64,000 nucleotides of DNA from Escherichia coli (lineage in GTDB: Bacteria > Pseudomonadota > Gammaproteobacteria > Enterobacterales > Enterobacteriaceae): the NCBI RefSeq assembly GCF_011045215.1, contig NZ_CP049201.1. One strand, given 5' to 3'. The notes below the pieces were generated by a model. The model was not told where the DNA came from, searched no databases, and saw only the letters and a program-made list of their open reading frames with translations. The position numbers were made by a program, and so were the translations under genes. Numbering within the stretch: the stretch's first letter is position 1; every line of letters starts with the position of its first letter. Positions 3,586 to 22,990 of this stretch are shown here, piece after piece.

Positions 3586-3902
3586 GTCTTTTTCCCTATT
3601 CCGGTTAACGTGACATACCAATAACTCTTGTCTGAAAAGCCAGCAAGCTGAAAAACCGGTATTCGTAACCACCAGCGCGTTTAACGTACTGCACCACTTT
3701 TCGGGCACAAAAAACCCGCCTAACGGCGAGCTTAAGCTGTGTAGCGAAGTAACCACTCTTAACACACTAAGCGAAAAAATGCGGACCGCGTTAGTGATTT
3801 TTAGCAAGTTTTGCTTTATTTTTCCTACGTACAGTAAAAATAAGAAATCAATTCCAGCCAGGCTGGCTGAGTTAACACAGGTCTTAGAATGAGGGAACTT
3901 CT

Positions 3903-4913
3903 TTGTACGAAATACATTACGACGTTGAGTCTGAACAGCAAGCTTTTGAATTACTTGAACGTTACCTAAACGGACAAGCTTTACCCGAAAAAATTAGTTT
4001 CAATGGTTGGCCAAGTCTAACCATCAGGTTGACTGGTGAAAAATTCAACAAATCACTCACACCTTCAGTTATGAAAGGATTTGTTGAAATGCAATCGCAA
4101 CTCAATAAGTCTTATGCGCTAGCAAAGTTCGGAACTCCTGATGTCCGCAGGCTAACAAAAGAAGAACTTGATGCTTTAGAAATTGAAGTTACAGTAGAGC
4201 AAGGTTCATCTCTTGTAGAGATTAACATTGATGGCTTCCTAAGCAAGCTTACGCACGAACTGGTAGGGAAAATGAACGCCACAGAGATTGTATTTACGGT
4301 TCTCGGTGCTGCCGTTATATGGGGCGGTGTAACCGTCTTCAAACGCTATCTGGATAACCGTAAAGATACTCGGTTGGCTGAAATTGCTAAAGAAGGCGAC
4401 AAAGAACACCTACGCGCAATGCAAGTGATGACACAGGAGGAAACAAAACGCCTCCAAATCATCTCAGAAATGGTGGCTAAAAAACCTCTACTCGACAATA
4501 TGGATCGAATGTCTTATGACGCTAAAACCACCATGGTTAAATCTTTCGTGCGTTCAGATTCAGCAGAAATTGACGGTGTCACAATAGATTCAGAAACGGC
4601 AAAAGAGCTAGTAACAAATGCTCGTCGACGCTCAGTTGAAATGAGAATAGACGGTATATACCGTATCGAAGAAGTGAATAATACCGACCCCGAAAGCTTC
4701 AAAGTTAAGGTTCGAAAGGTCGATTCTGATCAACGTTTGACCTGCGTTGTTCAGGATATATTCCTTGATGAATCAGGGAACAAAGAAGCCTTACAGCGAG
4801 CTGAATGGGAAAGAAAGCCTGTGCATTTAAGCATCAATGCCAAACACATTGATGGAGATATCAAGTCCGCCGTAATTTTACATGTGAAAGATGTTGAAGA
4901 TAAGCCCGAGTAA
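3903..4913 (+). CDS. hypothetical protein with one central hydrophobic segment; AT-rich cargo gene, family not recognised
   Basis: 1011-nt ORF opposite to the late genes; TTG start 6 nt after GAGGGA (in-frame TAG at 3885-3887 excludes an upstream ATG); 36 G+C in first 100 nt by hand count; hydrophobic stretch EIVFTVLGAAVIWGGVTVF. Confidence 0.7.
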   Translation: MYEIHYDVESEQQAFELLERYLNGQALPEKISFNGWPSLTIRLTGEKFNKSLTPSVMKGFVEMQSQLNKSYALAKFGTPDVRRLTKEELDALEIEVTVEQGSSLVEINIDGFLSKLTHELVGKMNATEIVFTVLGAAVIWGGVTVFKRYLDNRKDTRLAEIAKEGDKEHLRAMQVMTQEETKRLQIISEMVAKKPLLDNMDRMSYDAKTTMVKSFVRSDSAEIDGVTIDSETAKELVTNARRRSVEMRIDGIYRIEEVNNTDPESFKVKVRKVDSDQRLTCVVQDIFLDESGNKEALQRAEWERKPVHLSINAKHIDGDIKSAVILHVKDVEDKPE

Positions 4914-14053: not shown

Positions 14054-14479
14054 TTAATGCACAGCCAGAGTGTTTCCTGCCGGGCCACCACGATTCATCT
14101 GATCGAACAGAACGATCGCTGATGCAACGAAATCATCAATATCTTTCACCAGCCGTTCCTTCGTCTCTACCAACTCCCGAAAATAAGCGGAACTGTGGCT
14201 GCGCATTCGGGCCACCAGCGGAGGCGGCATTGCTTTTTCGATCGCTGGTAACAACGCCTGAATTTTTTTAACCGCATCAGGGGTGTCTTTATCCAGCCAA
14301 CGGAAAATTTTCTGGGTATTACGAGCCAGCGCTTCCGGATGCCTGTCGTCATATAGCTCCGGGAACGTCATACCCAGCTCAAAATAAGCCTGGGTTATTT
14401 CAGCTGCCGGAACTTTTTCACCGTCCGGATGCGCCCAGGCATTCATCGCCATACGGATGTGTTCATGCTTGATTTTCAT
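14054..14479 (-). CDS. YdaT-like regulator (CII-like position)
   Basis: 141 aa; N-terminus MKIKHEHI and length match remembered Rac YdaT; follows the Cro-like gene with a 17-nt overlap. Confidence 0.7.
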   Translation of the reverse strand: MKIKHEHIRMAMNAWAHPDGEKVPAAEITQAYFELGMTFPELYDDRHPEALARNTQKIFRWLDKDTPDAVKKIQALLPAIEKAMPPPLVARMRSHSSAYFRELVETKERLVKDIDDFVASAIVLFDQMNRGGPAGNTLAVH

Positions 14480-14738
14480 GAATCAACTCCGGTGTATTTG
14501 GTGTGTTAGCCTTATCTCCAGCAGGCAACCCGTCAGTTGGATTCGGGTATAAATCTGGTCGCAATTCATGAGGAGTCACCCCAGTTGCAATATAAATTTG
14601 ACGAACCCGTTCCCCCGTCGGAACTCGACCATTGTATTCATTTGCCCATTTGTGTATTTGAGATGGCCAAGCCCCTATTGCACGCCCTAGTGGACGAATA
14701 CCACCAGCAATCTTTATTGCTTTGTCCAATGCTGTCAT
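14463..14738 (-). CDS. Cro/YdaS-like HTH regulator
   Basis: 91-aa ORF divergent from the repressor gene; GGAGG upstream; helix-turn-helix-like segment GIRPLGRAIGAWPSQIHKW. Confidence 0.65.
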   Translation of the reverse strand: MTALDKAIKIAGGIRPLGRAIGAWPSQIHKWANEYNGRVPTGERVRQIYIATGVTPHELRPDLYPNPTDGLPAGDKANTPNTPELIHENQA

Positions 14739-14807
14739 ACAACCTCCAGTTCAACTAATCATAACAATTGTTCACTTAAAACGAACATAAGTCAACACCT
14801 CGAGGAA

Positions 14808-14835
14808 TTGTTAGTGTTCACTGAACGGTTATAAT
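14808..14835 (+). promoter_or_regulatory. sigma70-like promoter for the repressor gene; transcript probably leaderless
   Basis: TTGTTA (14808-14813), 16-nt spacer, TATAAT (14830-14835); ATG at 14842, only 6 nt after the -10; palindrome GTTCAcTGAAC (14816-14826) in the spacer. Confidence 0.4.
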
Positions 14836-14841
14836 TGCTAA

Positions 14842-15231
14842 ATGGACATGAGAAAAAAGCAATACGACACCCCGCTAGCAGAAAGGTTAGATGCGATCTC
14901 TCAACAGCATCATTTAAGTGGTTCAGATTTAGCGCGTATCGCTGGTGTAGGTCGTTCATCAGTCAACGCATGGAAAAAAAGAGGAACAATCAGTAAAGAT
15001 TCCGCAGCCAAAATTGCAGAAGCCACAAACGTTTCCCTTTCTTGGCTACTGACAGGGAAAGAAGAGACAAATAGAGAAGCGCTTGATGATGACGAGAAGG
15101 CCCTGCTTGATGTTTACAGAAACCTGCCACCTGTAGAACGTAGAAATATGCTGGCAGCTTTTCAAATGCGACTTCAAAAACTGACCGAATTTTACTCAGA
15201 ATACGTCGACCCAATAACACGACAAAAATAA
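14842..15231 (+). CDS. prophage repressor-like HTH protein (XRE family, no peptidase domain)
   Basis: 129 aa; HTH segment LSGSDLARIAGVGRSSVNAWKK; divergent from the Cro-like gene across a 103-bp operator region. Confidence 0.65.
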   Translation: MDMRKKQYDTPLAERLDAISQQHHLSGSDLARIAGVGRSSVNAWKKRGTISKDSAAKIAEATNVSLSWLLTGKEETNREALDDDEKALLDVYRNLPPVERRNMLAAFQMRLQKLTEFYSEYVDPITRQK

Positions 15232-15399
15232 TTCTTTATTTTACAGAATCATACCGCCGCAAGGCGGTTTTTTTTACCTTTTACGTATTCATAATGTTGA
15301 CTTTTGTTCACCCAAAGAGAACAATGTATTCCATCAAAGCACAACGGTGCGACAGGTCTTAGTTCCGCTACCCCGGCGTTAAGGGGAAATGAGGTCAAC

Positions 15400-15555
15400 A
15401 TGGATACTATCGATCTTGGCAACAACGAATCTCTGGTATACGGCGTGTTCCCCAACCAGGACGGCACGTTCACCGCCATGACGTATACCAAAAGCAAAAC
15501 GTTTAAAACCGAATCTGGCGCGCGTCGCTGGCTGGAAAGAAACTCAGGTGAGTGA
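15400..15555 (+). CDS. small protein, YdaF-like
   Basis: 51 aa from internal ATG of the track ORF; resembles remembered Rac YdaF and occupies the same position next to the repressor. Confidence 0.45.
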   Translation: MDTIDLGNNESLVYGVFPNQDGTFTAMTYTKSKTFKTESGARRWLERNSGE

Positions 15556-15556
15556 T

Positions 15557-15685
15557 ATGGATTTCGACACAATCATGGAAAAGGCTTACGAAGAATACTT
15601 CGAAGGCCTTGCCGAAGGCGAAGAAGCTCTCAGCTTCAGCGAATTTAAACAGGCGCTTTCCAGTTCGGTAAAATCTAACGGCTGA
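15557..15685 (+). CDS. small acidic protein, YdaG-like
   Basis: Hand-translated 42 aa (MDFDTIMEKAYEEYFEGLAEGEEALSFSEFKQALSSSVKSNG); ATG 2 nt after the upstream stop. Confidence 0.45.
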   Translation: MDFDTIMEKAYEEYFEGLAEGEEALSFSEFKQALSSSVKSNG

Positions 15686-15714
15686 TAAGCGAAGCGGCAC
15701 CGCGAGGAATCAGT

Positions 15715-15933
15715 ATGCAGAAACGAGAACCCCTCATCATCGCACCAGACTATACCGATGATGAACTTTATGAGTGGATGCGCGGGAAGATACGCGCCAT
15801 TAATGACCTGAAGCAGGCCACTGACCACAAAGAGCGCCTCTCTGAAACACTGACGTCAGTGACGCAGGATATTATCGCTCTGGCAAAAAGCGCGGCATTA
15901 AACGTTTCGCGACCGGTAAAAACAACTGACTAA
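15715..15933 (+). CDS. hypothetical early-left protein
   Basis: 72-aa ORF with GAGGAA upstream. Confidence 0.4.
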   Translation: MQKREPLIIAPDYTDDELYEWMRGKIRAINDLKQATDHKERLSETLTSVTQDIIALAKSAALNVSRPVKTTD

Positions 15934-15944
15934 TGAGGTTAACC

Positions 15945-16103
15945 ATGAATGAGGCAGAACTGAGACACGTTATAGCATTGCTTCTGGAAGATGCAAAACG
16001 TCTACATGAACTGGAACCAAATGCAGGCACAGGGGCCCGTATTTTGTTAGCAAAAAAATGTCTTGCTTCACAAGTGGTAAAAGCAACTGAACAGCGAGGT
16101 TAA
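15945..16103 (+). CDS. hypothetical small protein
   Basis: Hand-translated 52 aa; TGAGG 7 nt upstream; stop overlaps next start (TAATGATG). Confidence 0.35.
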   Translation: MNEAELRHVIALLLEDAKRLHELEPNAGTGARILLAKKCLASQVVKATEQRG

Positions 16104-16741
16104 TGATGGAATTTAAAGATTTACCGCTATCAATCCAGGGGATTGCAGCACACACACTACGTCAACGTCTGAACGAAGCTATGGCTGAATCTGCAACGAA
16201 AGAAACCATTGATAACATGGCTCGTAATGTGCACGATGCGTTTACCGGATTGTATTTCTGTGCGTCTGTAAATAAACACGACCCAGAGAGTGTGGCAAAG
16301 AAAATTGCAGAAACGACAGTGCAAAACATCAATACGAAACCAACCGAAGACGAAATTGACCAGCCTGCCAGTGAACAAAAGAAAGAAAAATCGCCATATG
16401 CGGGGAACATGTTTGTTTATGACAAACTTATCCGAATTCGTGGCGAAATTCCGACTGAATACCTGGCAAAAATTCACCAGGCATTACTTAAAAATCTGGA
16501 AACGGAAGTATTTGATGGCAACACCAACGGCTCCTTCGTGGTGTCAGCCCTCACAAAAGAATGGGATACAGATAATCGCCGGAATGTTGCTACATGGTTA
16601 TTCAGCAACAAAGCTGCTGCCCTGGAAGCTGCGGCCTGTATTTGCGACCTGCTAAGGACAGACCGCAAATACAACCTGGATGTGTATAGCTATATTTATG
16701 CTGAACACTATCCACTCTGGATTGACTGGTTTAAAGGGTAA
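16103..16741 (+). CDS. hypothetical early-left protein, family not recognised
   Basis: 212-aa ORF translationally coupled to upstream small ORF. Confidence 0.55.
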   Translation: MMEFKDLPLSIQGIAAHTLRQRLNEAMAESATKETIDNMARNVHDAFTGLYFCASVNKHDPESVAKKIAETTVQNINTKPTEDEIDQPASEQKKEKSPYAGNMFVYDKLIRIRGEIPTEYLAKIHQALLKNLETEVFDGNTNGSFVVSALTKEWDTDNRRNVATWLFSNKAAALEAAACICDLLRTDRKYNLDVYSYIYAEHYPLWIDWFKG

Positions 16742-16903
16742 CACCTGCGGGACCGAGCCGACCAGCACCACGATTATTTTATCCTCCATTAAGGGGTGAA
16801 TTAAAAATGGAGACCAACACGCTGCTACGTGTGGTCGTGCGCCGGACACGGATAACCTTCCGGCATGCTCTTTAACAATCTGGATATCCACAACAGCAAT
16901 AAC

Positions 16904-17539
16904 CTACGGATTGCTGCTCAATGCTCTACCTATCTCTTCTTCAGATGGGGGCGGTATATAGTCATCATTGCGTTCAAATTTAAAGCGCGAATCACATTTC
17001 AGGCATTTAGAAATATGGAACTTATCATGCTCACCAATTTCAACAGGTTGAAGTATTGCTATTACACCATGCTGATAGCAATTGGGACAGGCATAGTGAA
17101 AACATGTGTCTTCTTCGTCGAGGCTGTTCCTGAAAGCATAGACAAAATGCCCAAAACCAGTTTTGTGTATCGTATAGCATTCAAGTTTTCGATTACGCTC
17201 GTCAATTTCATGACATTTTTACTTAAGCAAGAGTATTTCCTCGTACTGAAGCGCGAGCGTTTTCGCTAGCTCTGCGTTCTGTATTTGTAAGTCTGCCAGT
17301 TGGCGACGCATTTCGTAGACAGCCTTTTCACGTTCAGATTGGCTTTTTGCATCAAGTATTACCTGTAATAAATCAATCGAGACTTTAATTGCCGTTATTG
17401 ATGAAGTTATTCCAGATAGCATTCTTAACTCTCTTTGTTGTTGGGGTATCCGGATTATACAAAATTCTTGTTGTTGGGGAACAACAGGAACCACCTCGCC
17501 TGATGTGGTTAAAAGCAGGCACACAACACGAAAGCGCAC
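16904..17539 (-). pseudogene. coiled-coil/zinc-ribbon gene interrupted by an in-frame TAA
   Basis: Track ORF 17219..17539 ends at TAA (17219-17221); the same frame continues 104 codons to TAG at 16904-16906 with no ATG/GTG start and CPNC...CLKC zinc-ribbon motifs. Confidence 0.4.
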
Positions 17540-17984
17540 GGCGAAGGTTTCTTTTCCTTAGAAGGCTTGTCGTTAGATTTCTTCGGCCGTGCGCTTCCGG
17601 TTGTGGCAATCCGCGAAATGGCGCGGCGGTAAGTATGGCGGGGTTATCCTTACCCCCACTGGTAGCACCGGGTTGTCAGGTTGACCATACGCTTAAGTGA
17701 CAACCCCGCTACAACATCTCCATGTTGAGGCTTGTGTGAGACCTTTGGCGGCATCAGTTTAATTGCTGGCTGATGTCCGCCCTTTTTAAAGTGAATTTTG
17801 TGATGTGGTGAATGCGGCTAAGCGCACGCGGAACAGTTAAAAGACCATTTGTTCTCCGTATCAATACTTATGGGTAGGTACTTGCAGGCGGGTCCCTGTA
17901 TTCCGGCGTTAATTGTTAACTGGTTAACGTCACCTGGAGGCACCAGGCACCGCATCACAAAATTCATTGTTGAGGACGCGATAA

Positions 17985-18172
17985 TGGAAACGTTATTACT
18001 CAATTCCACTACGCCTGAGACTCGTTTTGAAATTGGCGTTATCACTGGCGATAAAAACTTTATTGAGGATGCCATTAATCAGATAAAGCATGAGCCAGAT
18101 TCATCAAATGAGATATGCATTGCTTCAATGCTGGCCCGTTTACGCCCGACGCAAAAAGGATGCTGGCAATGA
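17985..18172 (+). CDS. hypothetical small protein
   Basis: 62-aa ORF from internal ATG with GAGGA 7 nt upstream. Confidence 0.35.
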
Positions 18173-18372
18173 ATACCACATTTGCACTTGTTCTGACGGT
18201 TTTTCTTGTTTCCGGTGAACCAGTTGACATGGTTATTGGCGTATACAGCTCAATGAAAGAATGCATGGCTGCCGCAGATGAACAGAAAATTCCCGGTAAC
18301 TGTTATCCGGTCGATAAAGTTATTCACCAGGATAATAACGAAATCCCGGCAGGACTTAAAACAGCGCCGTAA
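18169..18372 (+). CDS. small protein with N-terminal signal/lipoprotein-like segment
   Basis: 67 aa (MNTTFALVLTVFLVSGEP...); ATG overlaps upstream TGA. Confidence 0.4.
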   Translation: MNTTFALVLTVFLVSGEPVDMVIGVYSSMKECMAAADEQKIPGNCYPVDKVIHQDNNEIPAGLKTAP

Positions 18373-18449
18373 TTGATATTCGGTTTCATTTTTATATGTC
18401 AGCAATGACAGGGATTTGTTCACCCTTAAATCTGTAATGAGGTTTATCA

Positions 18450-20885
18450 ATGAGCACTGATAAAGAAGAATTTGCATTATATTGTGAAGCAAAAAATGAC
18501 AAAGTCAGAAAACGCCTTGGAATTAAAGGTGGTTTTTACTGGACTACAGCAAAAAAATTATCTGTTGCCATCTCCCGCTGCATTACCGCAATGGATGACA
18601 ACGATTATGATGAAGACGACTTTAAAAAACCCGTCCGCGTCCATTTACCCGTTGTGAATGACCTTCCACCTGAAGGCGTGTTTGATACTGAATTCTGTAA
18701 CCGTTACGAAAAAGGCGGGGAAGATGGCATCACAATGGTATTTATCGCGCCCTCACCCTCTGCGCAGGACAAACCAGCCAACATTGACAATACCAACGTC
18801 AACGGCGAAGACATGACTGAGATTGAGGAGAACATGCTCCTGCCGGTTTCAGGTCAGATTCTGCCTGTTCGATGGCTGGCACAGCACGGCAGCAAAAAAC
18901 CGATCACACACGTTTCGCGGGACGAACTGCGCGCATTACATAACGCACAGGATGAAAAACTTCCCGCCGTTACCGCGCTGGCTATCTCAAATAAAGCAGC
19001 GCAACTCGAACCGCTGGAGATTCGCGATCTCCACAAACTGGTGCGAGACACTGACAAAGTTTTCCCCGCCCCCGTAAATTCGGACCTGGGACTGATAACC
19101 TCTTTTATCGAAGCATACCTAGACGCCGACTACACCGATCGCGGTCTGCTGACAAAAGAGTGGATGAAAGGAAATCGTGTTTCGCGTATCACCCGTACGG
19201 CTTCCGGTGCAAATGCCGGTGGCGGGAACAAAACCGATCGCAATCCGAATTTAGTACACACCTTCGATACGCTGGATGTGGAGATTGCAACAGCCACACT
19301 TCCGATGGATTTTAATATTTATGAAATTCCGGGCAGCGTTTATCGTCGCGCAAAAGAAATCGTCCTGAAAAGAGAAAGTCCGTTCAAAGAATGGTCCGCA
19401 GCACTTCGCGCAACCCCGGGTATTCTGGATTATTCCCGCGCCGCTATTTTTGCACTTATCCGGAGCGCTCACCCTGAGTTTTATCACTACCCGGGACGCC
19501 TTCAGGGGTATATCAACGCCCACTTAACGGAGACTGATCACGAGAACCCCAGCAAGGAAACTCTCACTGCTGCACGACATACACCGGAAAAAGACATCCT
19601 GGAAGAAGTTAACCGCGAACTGGCTGCTGAACGCGAAACAGAAGAAGAAAAAAATAATGAGGAAAAATCACAACCGTCTGACGCAATGGCAGATGAACAG
19701 GCAACGACTGAAGCAATGGGACAGGATACAACTGAATATCGCCAGGACACACAATCGCTGGATACTCAGGCACAGATAAATCCGGTTAATCAGGTAAAAG
19801 TTACCGCTGACGAAGTAAACAAAATTATGCAGGCAGCCAATATCAACCAGCCTGATGCCGACAAAATACTGGCAGTCCATCGCGGTGAATTCGTTGACGG
19901 AATTAGCGACCCGAATGATCCGAAATGGGTTAAGGGGATTGAAACCCGCGATTCTGTGAACCAGAACCAGCCCGAATCGGAACAAAACAGCCAAAATGCG
20001 TTACAAAACGAGCCAGAAACGAAACAGCCTGAACCAGAAGAGCAACAAGAACCGGAAAAAGTCTGCACCGCCTGCGGTCAGACCGGCGGCGGCAACTGTC
20101 CTGACTGTGGCGCGGTGATGGGCGACGCAACATACCAGGAAACATTCGATGAAAAAAATCAGGCTGAAGTTCAGGAAGATGATCCGGAGGAAATGGAAGG
20201 CGCTGAACATCCGAACAATGAGAATGCTGGTAACGATCAGTATCACGCCAGCGATAGTGAAACTGGCGAGGCGACAGATCCCTTAATTAATGTGAACGGT
20301 CATCACGAAATCACATCCACCAGCAGTACGTGTGACCATCTAATGATCGACCTTGAAACCATGGGAAAAAATCCTGATGCCCCGATTATCTCAATAGGTG
20401 CAATATTTTTCGATCCGCAAACCGGAGATATGGGACCGGAATTTAGTAAGACTATAGATCTGGAAACAGCTGGCGGAGTCATTGATCGTGACACCATTAA
20501 ATGGTGGCTTAAGCAATCACGCGAGGCGCAATCTGCCATTCTGACCGATGAAATCCCGTTAGATGATGCACTGTTGCAATTGCGGGAATTTATCGACGAA
20601 AACTCCGGCGAATTTTTTGTTCGTGTCTGGGGAAATGGAGCCAGCTTCGACAACGTAATTTTACGCCGTTCATATGAACGGCAGGGGATCCCCTGCCCGT
20701 GGCGTTACTACAACGATCGCGATGTACGCACAATTCTTGAACTGGGAAAAGCCATAGACTTCGATGCCAGAACGGCTATTCCATTCGAAGGCGTACCCCA
20801 CAATGCGCTGGACGATGCCCGTCACCAGGCAAAACAAGTTTCAGCTATCTGGCAAAACCTGATCCCGAGTCAGGCTGATTTTTAA
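18450..20885 (+). CDS. large phage exonuclease-like protein (C-terminal DnaQ/DEDDh-like 3'-5' exonuclease, acidic linker, zinc ribbon)
   Basis: 811 aa; C-terminus LMIDLETMG...WGNGASFDN...HNALDDARH fits DEDDh motifs; CTACGQTGGGNCPDCG zinc ribbon; E/Q-rich low-complexity centre. Confidence 0.7.
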   Translation: MSTDKEEFALYCEAKNDKVRKRLGIKGGFYWTTAKKLSVAISRCITAMDDNDYDEDDFKKPVRVHLPVVNDLPPEGVFDTEFCNRYEKGGEDGITMVFIAPSPSAQDKPANIDNTNVNGEDMTEIEENMLLPVSGQILPVRWLAQHGSKKPITHVSRDELRALHNAQDEKLPAVTALAISNKAAQLEPLEIRDLHKLVRDTDKVFPAPVNSDLGLITSFIEAYLDADYTDRGLLTKEWMKGNRVSRITRTASGANAGGGNKTDRNPNLVHTFDTLDVEIATATLPMDFNIYEIPGSVYRRAKEIVLKRESPFKEWSAALRATPGILDYSRAAIFALIRSAHPEFYHYPGRLQGYINAHLTETDHENPSKETLTAARHTPEKDILEEVNRELAAERETEEEKNNEEKSQPSDAMADEQATTEAMGQDTTEYRQDTQSLDTQAQINPVNQVKVTADEVNKIMQAANINQPDADKILAVHRGEFVDGISDPNDPKWVKGIETRDSVNQNQPESEQNSQNALQNEPETKQPEPEEQQEPEKVCTACGQTGGGNCPDCGAVMGDATYQETFDEKNQAEVQEDDPEEMEGAEHPNNENAGNDQYHASDSETGEATDPLINVNGHHEITSTSSTCDHLMIDLETMGKNPDAPIISIGAIFFDPQTGDMGPEFSKTIDLETAGGVIDRDTIKWWLKQSREAQSAILTDEIPLDDALLQLREFIDENSGEFFVRVWGNGASFDNVILRRSYERQGIPCPWRYYNDRDVRTILELGKAIDFDARTAIPFEGVPHNALDDARHQAKQVSAIWQNLIPSQADF

Positions 20886-20949: not shown

Positions 20950-21198
20950 ATGGCAAGACTTATTCTGCTCACTGAGTGGGCAAAAGAGGAATTCAGCGAT
21001 CCGGTCCCTACTCCGGGCACGTTAAGTAAATACGCTAAAGCCGGAATGATATTTCCTCTCCCCAAAAAAGTTGGAAGACACTGGCGAGTGGATCCACGAG
21101 CTCGCTTTGTCGGAATGGTAAACAAGCCGGAGGTGATCGCCACAGATCACCCTGCTTTGAAGAGGATACTGGAAGATGGCGCGCCCGCGAAAATATAA
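20950..21198 (+). CDS. xis: excisionase (lambda Xis-like)
   Basis: 82 aa, overlaps int start as in lambda; GMIFPLPKKVGRHWRVDPRARFVG resembles lambda Xis. Confidence 0.7.
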   Translation: MARLILLTEWAKEEFSDPVPTPGTLSKYAKAGMIFPLPKKVGRHWRVDPRARFVGMVNKPEVIATDHPALKRILEDGAPAKI

Positions 21199-22306
21199 AA
21201 CCGAAGTTCCGGGACTATCTCCGTATTTTGACAAAAGAAATAACAAAGTTTACTGGCGTTACAGGCATCCCATAACAGGCAAAAATCACGGTCTCGGCAG
21301 TATTGACCAGAAACTGGCAGAAACTATTGCAGCAGAAGCGAACAGCCGTCTTGCCAGGCAGCAAATGGAACAAATGCTCAGTCTGCAGGAGAAAATTATT
21401 AATGATACCGGCGGTTCATCAACCGTTTCCATTTTTCTGAATAATTACAGAAAAATTCAACAGGAAAGATATGAAAACGGAGAGATCAAACTCAACACGC
21501 TGAAACAAAAAGCGGCCCCTCTCAGGGTATTTGATGAACGTTTTGGCACCAGACCGTTAGATGCCATAACTGTAAAAGATGTGGTATCGGTGCTGGAAGA
21601 GTACAAGGCCAGAGGACATAACAGAATGGGGCAAATTTTCAGGAAGGTACTGATCGATGTTTTCCGGGAAGCTCAGCAAACAGGCGATGTTCCGCCAGGC
21701 TTTAACCCTGCAGAATCGGCAAAAAAACCGCAGGTGCGGATATCAAGACAGCGACTGACTTTTGATGAGTGGATGATGATTTATAACGCAGCGGAAAAGG
21801 ATGGTTACTTTTTACAGCGCGGCATGCTGCTGGCACTGATGACAGGCCAGCGCCTTTCAGATATTTGCAAAATGCAATTTTCGGATATCCGGGATGGTTA
21901 TCTTCATGTCGAACAGCAAAAAACAGGAACCCGGATTGCCATCCCTCTTGCTCTGCGTTGCAATAAATTAAATCTCACCCTGGATGATGTGGTGTCATCC
22001 TGTCGCGATTGCGTTCTTAGTCCGTGGCTATTGCACCACCATCATGCGAAAGGGACAGCCAAGCGCGGCGGGATGGTTAAGCCAGCAACGTTAACAGTTG
22101 CATTTAAAAAAGCGCGGGATTCTGTGGATTACAACTGGCGTGCTAATGGCACCCCACCCTCTTTCCATGAGCAGAGATCTTTATCAGAGCGATTGTTCAG
22201 AGAGCAGGGAATTGATACCCAAATTTTGCTGGGTCATTCGAATCAAAAAATGACCGATATTTACAACGATGCACGCGGCAAGGAGTGGAAAAAACTGGTC
22301 ATTTGA
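21176..22306 (+). CDS. int: tyrosine integrase (lambda Int family)
   Basis: 376 aa; LTFDEWMMIYNAA...LALMTGQRLSDICKMQFSDIRDGYLHVEQQKTGTRIAIPLAL aligns with remembered lambda Int catalytic region. Confidence 0.9.
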   Translation: MARPRKYKTEVPGLSPYFDKRNNKVYWRYRHPITGKNHGLGSIDQKLAETIAAEANSRLARQQMEQMLSLQEKIINDTGGSSTVSIFLNNYRKIQQERYENGEIKLNTLKQKAAPLRVFDERFGTRPLDAITVKDVVSVLEEYKARGHNRMGQIFRKVLIDVFREAQQTGDVPPGFNPAESAKKPQVRISRQRLTFDEWMMIYNAAEKDGYFLQRGMLLALMTGQRLSDICKMQFSDIRDGYLHVEQQKTGTRIAIPLALRCNKLNLTLDDVVSSCRDCVLSPWLLHHHHAKGTAKRGGMVKPATLTVAFKKARDSVDYNWRANGTPPSFHEQRSLSERLFREQGIDTQILLGHSNQKMTDIYNDARGKEWKKLVI

Positions 22307-22351: not shown

Positions 22352-22990
22352 TTAAAAGCGGTACCCGGCAGAGAACATAAACACCCACGGATCCAGTCGT
22401 ACCGCGTCTTTCACGGGTGTTCCGTTAGATTTATAGCTGGCTGTGGTATCGATATCCATGTACCACACTGACATGTTAACCAACCAGTCACGGTTAATCA
22501 GATAATCAACCCCCACCTGCCCGGCAGCTCCCCAGGAATCTTTCAGACTGAGATCGGAAAGCCCCGCCTCTTTGCCATGATCGTTAAATCCATTATCAAA
22601 GAAGGTGGTGTAGTTAATACCTGCCCCAACATAAGGACGGAATTTGCTGCTGGCATCACCAAAATACCACTGCGCCATCAGTGTTGGCGGCAGATGATGA
22701 ACGGTTGCAATATCGCCGGTCGCCCGGGTGCCGATTTTATGGCGGAACGGCGTCGCTGCCAGTAATTCCACACCAATGTTGTCGGTCGCCATATAAGTAA
22801 ACGTCAGGCCCAGTTGAGTGTTATTGGTCACGCTGAATCCACCCAGACTTCCTAACGTACCACCAGCACCTTCTGTTGGACGTACGGTTGCAGAACCTGC
22901 ACGCATAAAAAATTCGCCTGCTTCATGCGCAAAGGCACTGCCAGAGAGAAGAGTTGTTACTGCCAAAGCCGCCACTGTTAACTTTTTCAT
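22352..22990 (-). CDS. ompW: outer membrane protein W
   Basis: 212 aa with signal peptide; matches E. coli OmpW. Confidence 0.95.
   Translation of the reverse strand: MKKLTVAALAVTTLLSGSAFAHEAGEFFMRAGSATVRPTEGAGGTLGSLGGFSVTNNTQLGLTFTYMATDNIGVELLAATPFRHKIGTRATGDIATVHHLPPTLMAQWYFGDASSKFRPYVGAGINYTTFFDNGFNDHGKEAGLSDLSLKDSWGAAGQVGVDYLINRDWLVNMSVWYMDIDTTASYKSNGTPVKDAVRLDPWVFMFSAGYRF

Follow-up and report, generated by a model that had tools for sequence, protein, structure and literature searches.

Gene content and predicted control of the block

The window, a stretch of 64,000 nucleotides of Escherichia coli DNA (contig NZ_CP049201.1), contains five small open reading frames on its plus strand which follow a prophage repressor gene. 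ORF1 (15400-15555; 51 aa) is ydfA and encodes a DUF1391 protein, ORF2 (15557-15685; 42 aa, pI 4.1) is ydfB (phrog_2061). Both were named on the basis of their identity to genes of K-12. ORF3 (15715-15933; 72 aa; phrog_1744) is a variant of ydfC, ORF4 (15945-16103; 52 aa) codes for a helical protein assigned to phrog_30817/12693/2982, and ORF5 (16106-16741; 211 aa) belongs to phrog_2151, whose product is called 'Ybl81' in some records. The intergenic gaps measure 1, 29, 11 and 2 nt, in this order, and a GAGG-type ribosome-binding site lies ahead of each ORF. The first ATG of ORF5, an alternative start at 16103 which shares one nucleotide with the stop codon of ORF4, would give a product of 212 aa. 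Most likely, the true start is at 16106 (211 aa) because aligned homologues begin with MEFKD and the spacing to the ribosome-binding site fits better. The preliminary description of this DNA had reported five tightly coupled plus-strand ORFs, all of which were found. They are genuine genes rather than chance ORFs; in a PHROGs scan all five products fell into families at E <= 1e-20. Judged by their sequence properties, the products are hydrophilic, soluble and devoid of membrane segments. Four of them are acidic (pI 4.1-5.8) while ORF4 is mildly basic (pI 8.0).

The immunity region upstream of the block has a lambdoid layout. On the minus strand, a YdaT-family gene (14054..14479; PF06254 YdaT_toxin, E 8e-11) occupies the cII position and is followed by a cro-like regulator gene of the YdaS family (14463..14738; PF15943, E 7e-10), which is divergent from the repressor gene. 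The latter (14842..15231, plus strand) encodes a CI/DicA-type repressor of 129 aa (PF07022, E 1.6e-12; NF007257 DicA, E 2e-9). Since only 24 out of 90 residues are identical to K-12 DicA, it represents a different immunity type. Between the two regulators lies a putative promoter/operator region (14748..14827) with a perfect palindrome, TGTTC-N9-GAACA, at positions 14769-14787, flanked by two copies with two mismatches each (14748 and 14809). A candidate cro-like promoter, TTGACT-17-AACAAT, extends from 14795 to 14767 on the minus strand, a candidate repressor promoter from 14808 to 14835. Downstream of the repressor gene, an intrinsic terminator composed of a GC stem, a GCAA loop and eight T residues was detected (15253..15275, plus strand). 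It precedes a putative early-left promoter, the equivalent of dicBp (15297..15325, plus strand; TTGACT-17-AACAAT), from which the block would be transcribed. This promoter is overlapped by another perfect palindrome, TGTTCACCCAAAGAGAACA (15305-15323). Hence, the early-left and the cro-like promoter agree in hexamers and spacing, and the palindromes which overlap them are built alike.

The block is probably silent in the lysogen and switched on after derepression, because a putative operator covers both the early-left and the cro-like promoter. The CI/DicA-type repressor would bind to these palindromes, and derepression would give rise to one translationally coupled polycistronic message. In K-12, DicA represses dicBp 22-fold, ydfABC and dicF have been found on one polycistronic transcript, and DicF is processed from such RNA (PMC10448788). 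A different arrangement exists in lambda, where the predicted expression pattern of the present block finds its opposite in the rexAB genes. These are co-transcribed with cI. Co-transcription of the rexAB type with the repressor gene can be ruled out here because the terminator at 15253-15275 intervenes.

The ydfABC core, the replacement module and the operon downstream

ORF1 is identical to K-12 YdfA in 50 of 51 positions and to Rac YdaF in 42 of 49, and matches PF07151 (DUF1391) in Pfam with an E value of 9e-29. Six synonymous and one non-synonymous codon differences separate the ydfA gene from that of K-12. ORF2 shares 41 of its 42 residues with K-12 YdfB, whereas Rac YdaG was not among the three best alignments obtained with a panel of 12 K-12 proteins. 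Thus, the resemblance of the first two ORFs to Rac YdaF and YdaG that had been noticed before holds for ORF1, a DUF1391 relative of YdaF, but not for ORF2, which is YdfB. In ORF3 and K-12 YdfC, 40 of 68 residues are identical and the N-terminus is conserved. The C-terminal two thirds of ydfC belong to a different allele because the DNA homology to K-12 stops at position 15791. Compared with the Qin prophage of K-12, the window is 95% identical over 15361-15791 and 80% over 17511-18444. The interval between these segments (15792-17510) is a replacement module of 1.7 kb at a place where K-12 has 262 nt; ORF4 and ORF5 sit inside this module, which is missing from K-12. Two further records were rejected. 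In one phage record YdfA is labelled 'head-DNA stabilization protein D', for which the only support was a PDB match at E 0.25. The 'ydfA' of plasmid pUA1135 (PMC12111858) shares a plasmid operon with ibfA and, in view of this context, was not considered relevant.

ORF4 holds a conserved N-terminal helical module of 42 aa that also opens proteins of 95-119 aa encoded at the same early-left position of other temperate phages, e.g., Cronobacter phage phiES15 and Shigella phage 75/02 Stx. Relatives from Cronobacter, Aeromonas, Serratia and Stx phages are 58-68% identical. The ORF ends 10 residues past the conserved module, exactly at the start of ORF5. A megablast search of 5,426 complete E. coli genomes did not recover its DNA; the exact protein is recorded on 28 contigs.

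ORF5 was detected in 599 of these 5,426 genomes (approximately 11%), including O157:H7. The protein is composed of three parts, a helical N-domain (residues 1-75, approximately), a charged linker and an alpha/beta C-terminal domain (approximately 96-205). Several allelic types of the N-domain exist, which are also joined to unrelated C-termini. ORF5 is under purifying selection: among 38 distinct alleles, the N-domain had a dN/dS of approximately 0.51 and the C-terminal domain one of approximately 0.19. It would accordingly be seen as a two-part protein in which a fast-evolving helical domain is coupled to a conserved alpha/beta domain. Neither an exhaustive HMMER search nor a profile search revealed relatives outside Escherichia and Salmonella, the N-domain used alone as query recovered truncated copies only, and the C-terminal domain was present in none of 50,697 sequenced phage records. 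It has a generic alpha/beta fold; ACT-like and SUI1-like folds were considered, but the fold search yielded no function. A literature search for Ybl81 or the RefSeq protein accessions gave nothing.

Directly 3' of most ORF5 relatives, a convergent and abutting gene encodes a protein of 69 aa (phrog_4274) with the C-terminus GRRGPAG..L. An architecture tally placed it in roughly 70 of 80 IMG/VR loci, the dominant order being YdfA, ORF5, the 69-aa gene (antisense), DicB and YdfD. Intact copies are located, for instance, at 3743-3952 in locus L010, 4140-4349 in L012 and 5611-5820 in L013. Distant homologues in Salmonella keep the pairing, with approximately 35% identity in the C-terminal domain and 35 of 69 identical residues in the small protein. 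There, the genes are arranged in the order integrase, HTH repressor, long Cox-like protein, C-terminal-domain gene, small antisense gene and exonucleases. Like the C-terminal domain of ORF5, the 69-aa gene was found in none of the 50,697 phage records. In both the Qin-like E. coli prophages, including those of O157:H7, and the Salmonella Cox-switch elements, the phrog_2151/phrog_4274 pair always comes after the lysis-lysogeny switch and before the exonuclease genes. ORF5 usually travels with this partner, which the prophage studied here has lost: comparison with relatives revealed a remnant on the minus strand (16731..16778) comprising the last 15 codons (NNRGAGRLGPAGVTL, followed by the stop codon), approximately 163 nt of the gene being deleted. 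Strain C5 and three IMG/VR loci likewise carry an intact ORF5 but no partner gene.

In the window, the place of the 69-aa gene is occupied by an antisense gene for a coiled-coil and zinc-ribbon protein (16904..17422, minus strand; phrog_1244), which thus takes a sieB-like position in the early-left operon. It is a pseudogene due to an in-frame TAA at 17219-17221. This stop codon results from a single C-to-T exchange, as the corresponding codon is CAA (Gln) in the IMG/VR locus L017 and the C5 protein also has Gln. E. coli C5 and the IMG/VR loci L017, L018 and L092 carry intact copies of the gene.

Downstream of the module, the plus strand carries a DicF-like sRNA (17733..17782; Rfam RF00039) with a terminator at 17750-17777. 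The match to RF00039 is full-length and scores 45.4 bits (E 1.3e-7), against a gathering score of 48. The 5' part of the sRNA departs from the consensus, so the target range might differ. A weak match to STnc100 (33.9 bits, E 1.5e-4) was noted at 17784-18003, between the DicF-like sRNA and dicB. The dicB gene (17984..18172; 62 aa; PF05358, E 3e-26, 91 bits) encodes a product identical to K-12 DicB in 35 of 62 residues, and ydfD (18169..18372; 67 aa; DUF1482, PF07358, E 1e-24, 86 bits) one identical to K-12 YdfD in 49 of 63. DicB is a cell-division inhibitor and the YdfD protein of K-12 a lysis protein. The next gene on this strand (18450..20885) codes for a RecE-like exonuclease (PF06630, E 2e-27; PF16473, E 4e-66). 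In this protein, an N-terminal Exonuc_VIII region is joined to a 3'-5' exonuclease domain of the DEDDh type that is Rv2179c-like; in its place, the classical RecE nuclease domain would be expected. The annotations of phages Tritos and vB_EcoS-689R5, like those of many E. coli chromosomes, show the same gene order. Further downstream, an integrase-sized ORF (21176-22306) adjoins an ORF of 212 aa on the minus strand (22352-22990), which we take to be ompW in view of its length and position. If so, the prophage would be of the PPompW type. Records named PPompW were also matched in the phage search, and in some STEC records the PPompW feature lies inside an Stx2a phage record.

In the window, ydfA, ydfB and ydfC are followed by the DicF-like sRNA, dicB, ydfD and the exonuclease gene in the order known from Qin. 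Therefore, it is likely that the block forms the promoter-proximal part of a repressor-controlled, dicBF-type early-left operon in a Qin-like lambdoid prophage beside the presumed ompW. The locus as such is a mosaic dicBF-type operon.

Possible functions of the five products

Scans of the five products against Pfam, PHROGs, NCBIfam and PADLOC yielded DUF1391 and PHROG families of unknown function only. The best PADLOC match, AbiEi with 29 residues of ORF1, had an E value of 0.007, and nothing lower was obtained. None of the PHROG families for exclusion, immunity or restriction alleviation was matched confidently; the only named family listed was phrog_3585 ('immunity protein'; ORF1, E 0.052). 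The PDB was searched by sequence with ORFs 1, 2, 3 and 5 as single queries and with profiles of ORF4 and ORF5; no match fell below E ~0.02. The 212-aa product, which had been singled out as an unassigned candidate, thus stays without an assignment, as does the 52-aa product: the Pfam, PHROGs, NCBIfam, PADLOC, PDB-sequence and fold searches gave no function for either of them. For the three core genes, and only for these, published induction data on K-12 are informative. Induction of the K-12 operon with dicF and dicB deleted but ydfABC and ydfD retained caused neither a growth defect nor filamentation (PMC5069750), and a preprint from 2024 still describes ydfABC as genes without a known function (PMC11430063).

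Tentatively, the five soluble proteins may be grouped with their neighbours DicF, DicB and YdfD as early-lytic proteins that modulate or inhibit the host. This class is weakly favoured over factors which are expressed in the lysogen and exclude superinfecting phages, as known for rexAB and sieB. SieB and RexB are membrane proteins, and membrane segments are lacking in all five products. The preliminary description had suggested an exclusion or anti-defence function from the proximity of the block to the immunity region. This location was confirmed, and DicB, encoded by the same operon, blocks the entry of lambda DNA when the K-12 operon is induced (PMC6832061). However, the analogy to rexAB and sieB was not borne out. 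The terminator and the operator-covered promoter part the block from the repressor transcript, PADLOC gave no match at E < 0.007 and PHROGs none to exclusion families. Moreover, once dicB or both dicB and dicF had been removed from the induced K-12 operon, lambda plating returned to near the control level even though ydfABC remained (PMC6832061). Lysogen-expressed superinfection exclusion or defence is, on this evidence, very unlikely. Anti-defence of the kind exerted by Ral, Ocr or Gam, whereby small acidic early proteins, especially ORF5, would inhibit host immunity at the onset of lytic growth, would fit the early position of the block under presumed repressor control. Four of the five products are small, acidic and soluble, their distribution is accessory and mosaic, and the N-domain of ORF5 evolves with a dN/dS of about 0.5, compared to 0.19 for the C-terminal domain. 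On the other hand, none of the PHROG families annotated for anti-restriction or host takeover showed similarity, no structural match was obtained, and the absence of the ORF5 C-terminal domain from the sequenced phage records is odd for a helper of lytic growth. A Ral-type early-lytic role is conceivable, but the anti-defence explanation as a whole is rather doubtful.

Two other explanations start from the gene arrangement. ORF5 and the convergent 69-aa gene might constitute a self-contained two-gene module, for example a toxin/antidote pair, an addiction system or an abortive infection system, kept by cryptic prophages. The pair is retained across the Qin-like prophages of E. coli and the Cox-switch elements of Salmonella, the small gene accompanies ORF5 in most of the IMG/VR loci, and both genes are missing from sequenced phage genomes. 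Yet the present prophage, strain C5 and three IMG/VR loci all keep an intact ORF5 in the absence of the partner, neither protein resembles a known toxin or antitoxin, and the linkage could reflect inheritance as a single mosaic block, which makes this proposal improbable. If it were true, the half-deleted module of the window would probably be inactive or altered. Viewed more broadly, there is a minor chance that phrog_2151 and phrog_4274 form a previously undescribed module, possibly a defence, addiction or anti-defence unit retained by prophages. It is also conceivable that the ORFs act mainly as a translated leader which guards the long transcript from premature termination and shapes the processing of the DicF precursor, ORF4 being a remnant of recombination. 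The processing of K-12 DicF from the ydfABC-dicF transcript (PMC10448788) and the end of ORF4 shortly past its module, exactly where ORF5 starts, would agree with a leader. This explanation is nonetheless quite improbable, as purifying selection acts at the protein level on ydfA, ydfB and the C-terminal domain of ORF5, and the ORF4 module is conserved in amino acids across genera. For ORF5, the best reading is that of a modular accessory cargo. The locus is a known dicBF-type operon with two accessory genes that have no assigned function, and not a new exclusion locus.

Relationship to the lambda, Rac and Qin operons

In placement and logic, the locus resembles the PL operon of lambda (ral, sieB, cIII, kil, gam): early genes that are small and non-essential separate the repressor from the recombination genes, and one gene lies on the opposite strand. 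By contrast, no sequence or profile similarity to the accessory genes of lambda was found, and an N-type antiterminator was not recognised. With Rac (racR-ydaG-ydaF-(sieB)-kilS-kilR), the locus shares a DUF1391 gene, YdaF and ORF1 being paralogues (42/49). The sieB position of the early-left operon likewise holds an antisense gene, and there is weak homology between the KilS/kilR and the DicF region. However, ORF2 does not correspond to YdaG nor the repressor to RacR, and the window contains neither sieB nor kilR.

The dicBF locus of Qin (Kim) in K-12, which is among the better-studied cryptic-prophage loci, has the same gene order and orientation (dicC / dicA / ydfA-ydfB-ydfC-dicF-dicB-ydfD). 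YdfA and YdfB are nearly identical in both prophages, and homology extends to the N-terminus of YdfC, the DicF leader, DicB and YdfD. Both operons have a divergent repressor/cro pair upstream, and in each of them a promoter located after the repressor gene and ahead of ydfA is presumably under repressor control. What separates the two operons is the repressor and its operators, which belong to another immunity type, the other allele in the 3' part of ydfC, and the exonuclease gene, which is intact here while K-12 has the pseudogene ydfE. In addition, the 1.7-kb module with ORF4, ORF5 and the antisense gene replaces the 262 nt that extend from ydfC to the dicF leader in K-12. This interval is a swap site for accessory genes, and the 211-aa ORF5, usually together with its convergent 69-aa partner, is one frequent cargo.
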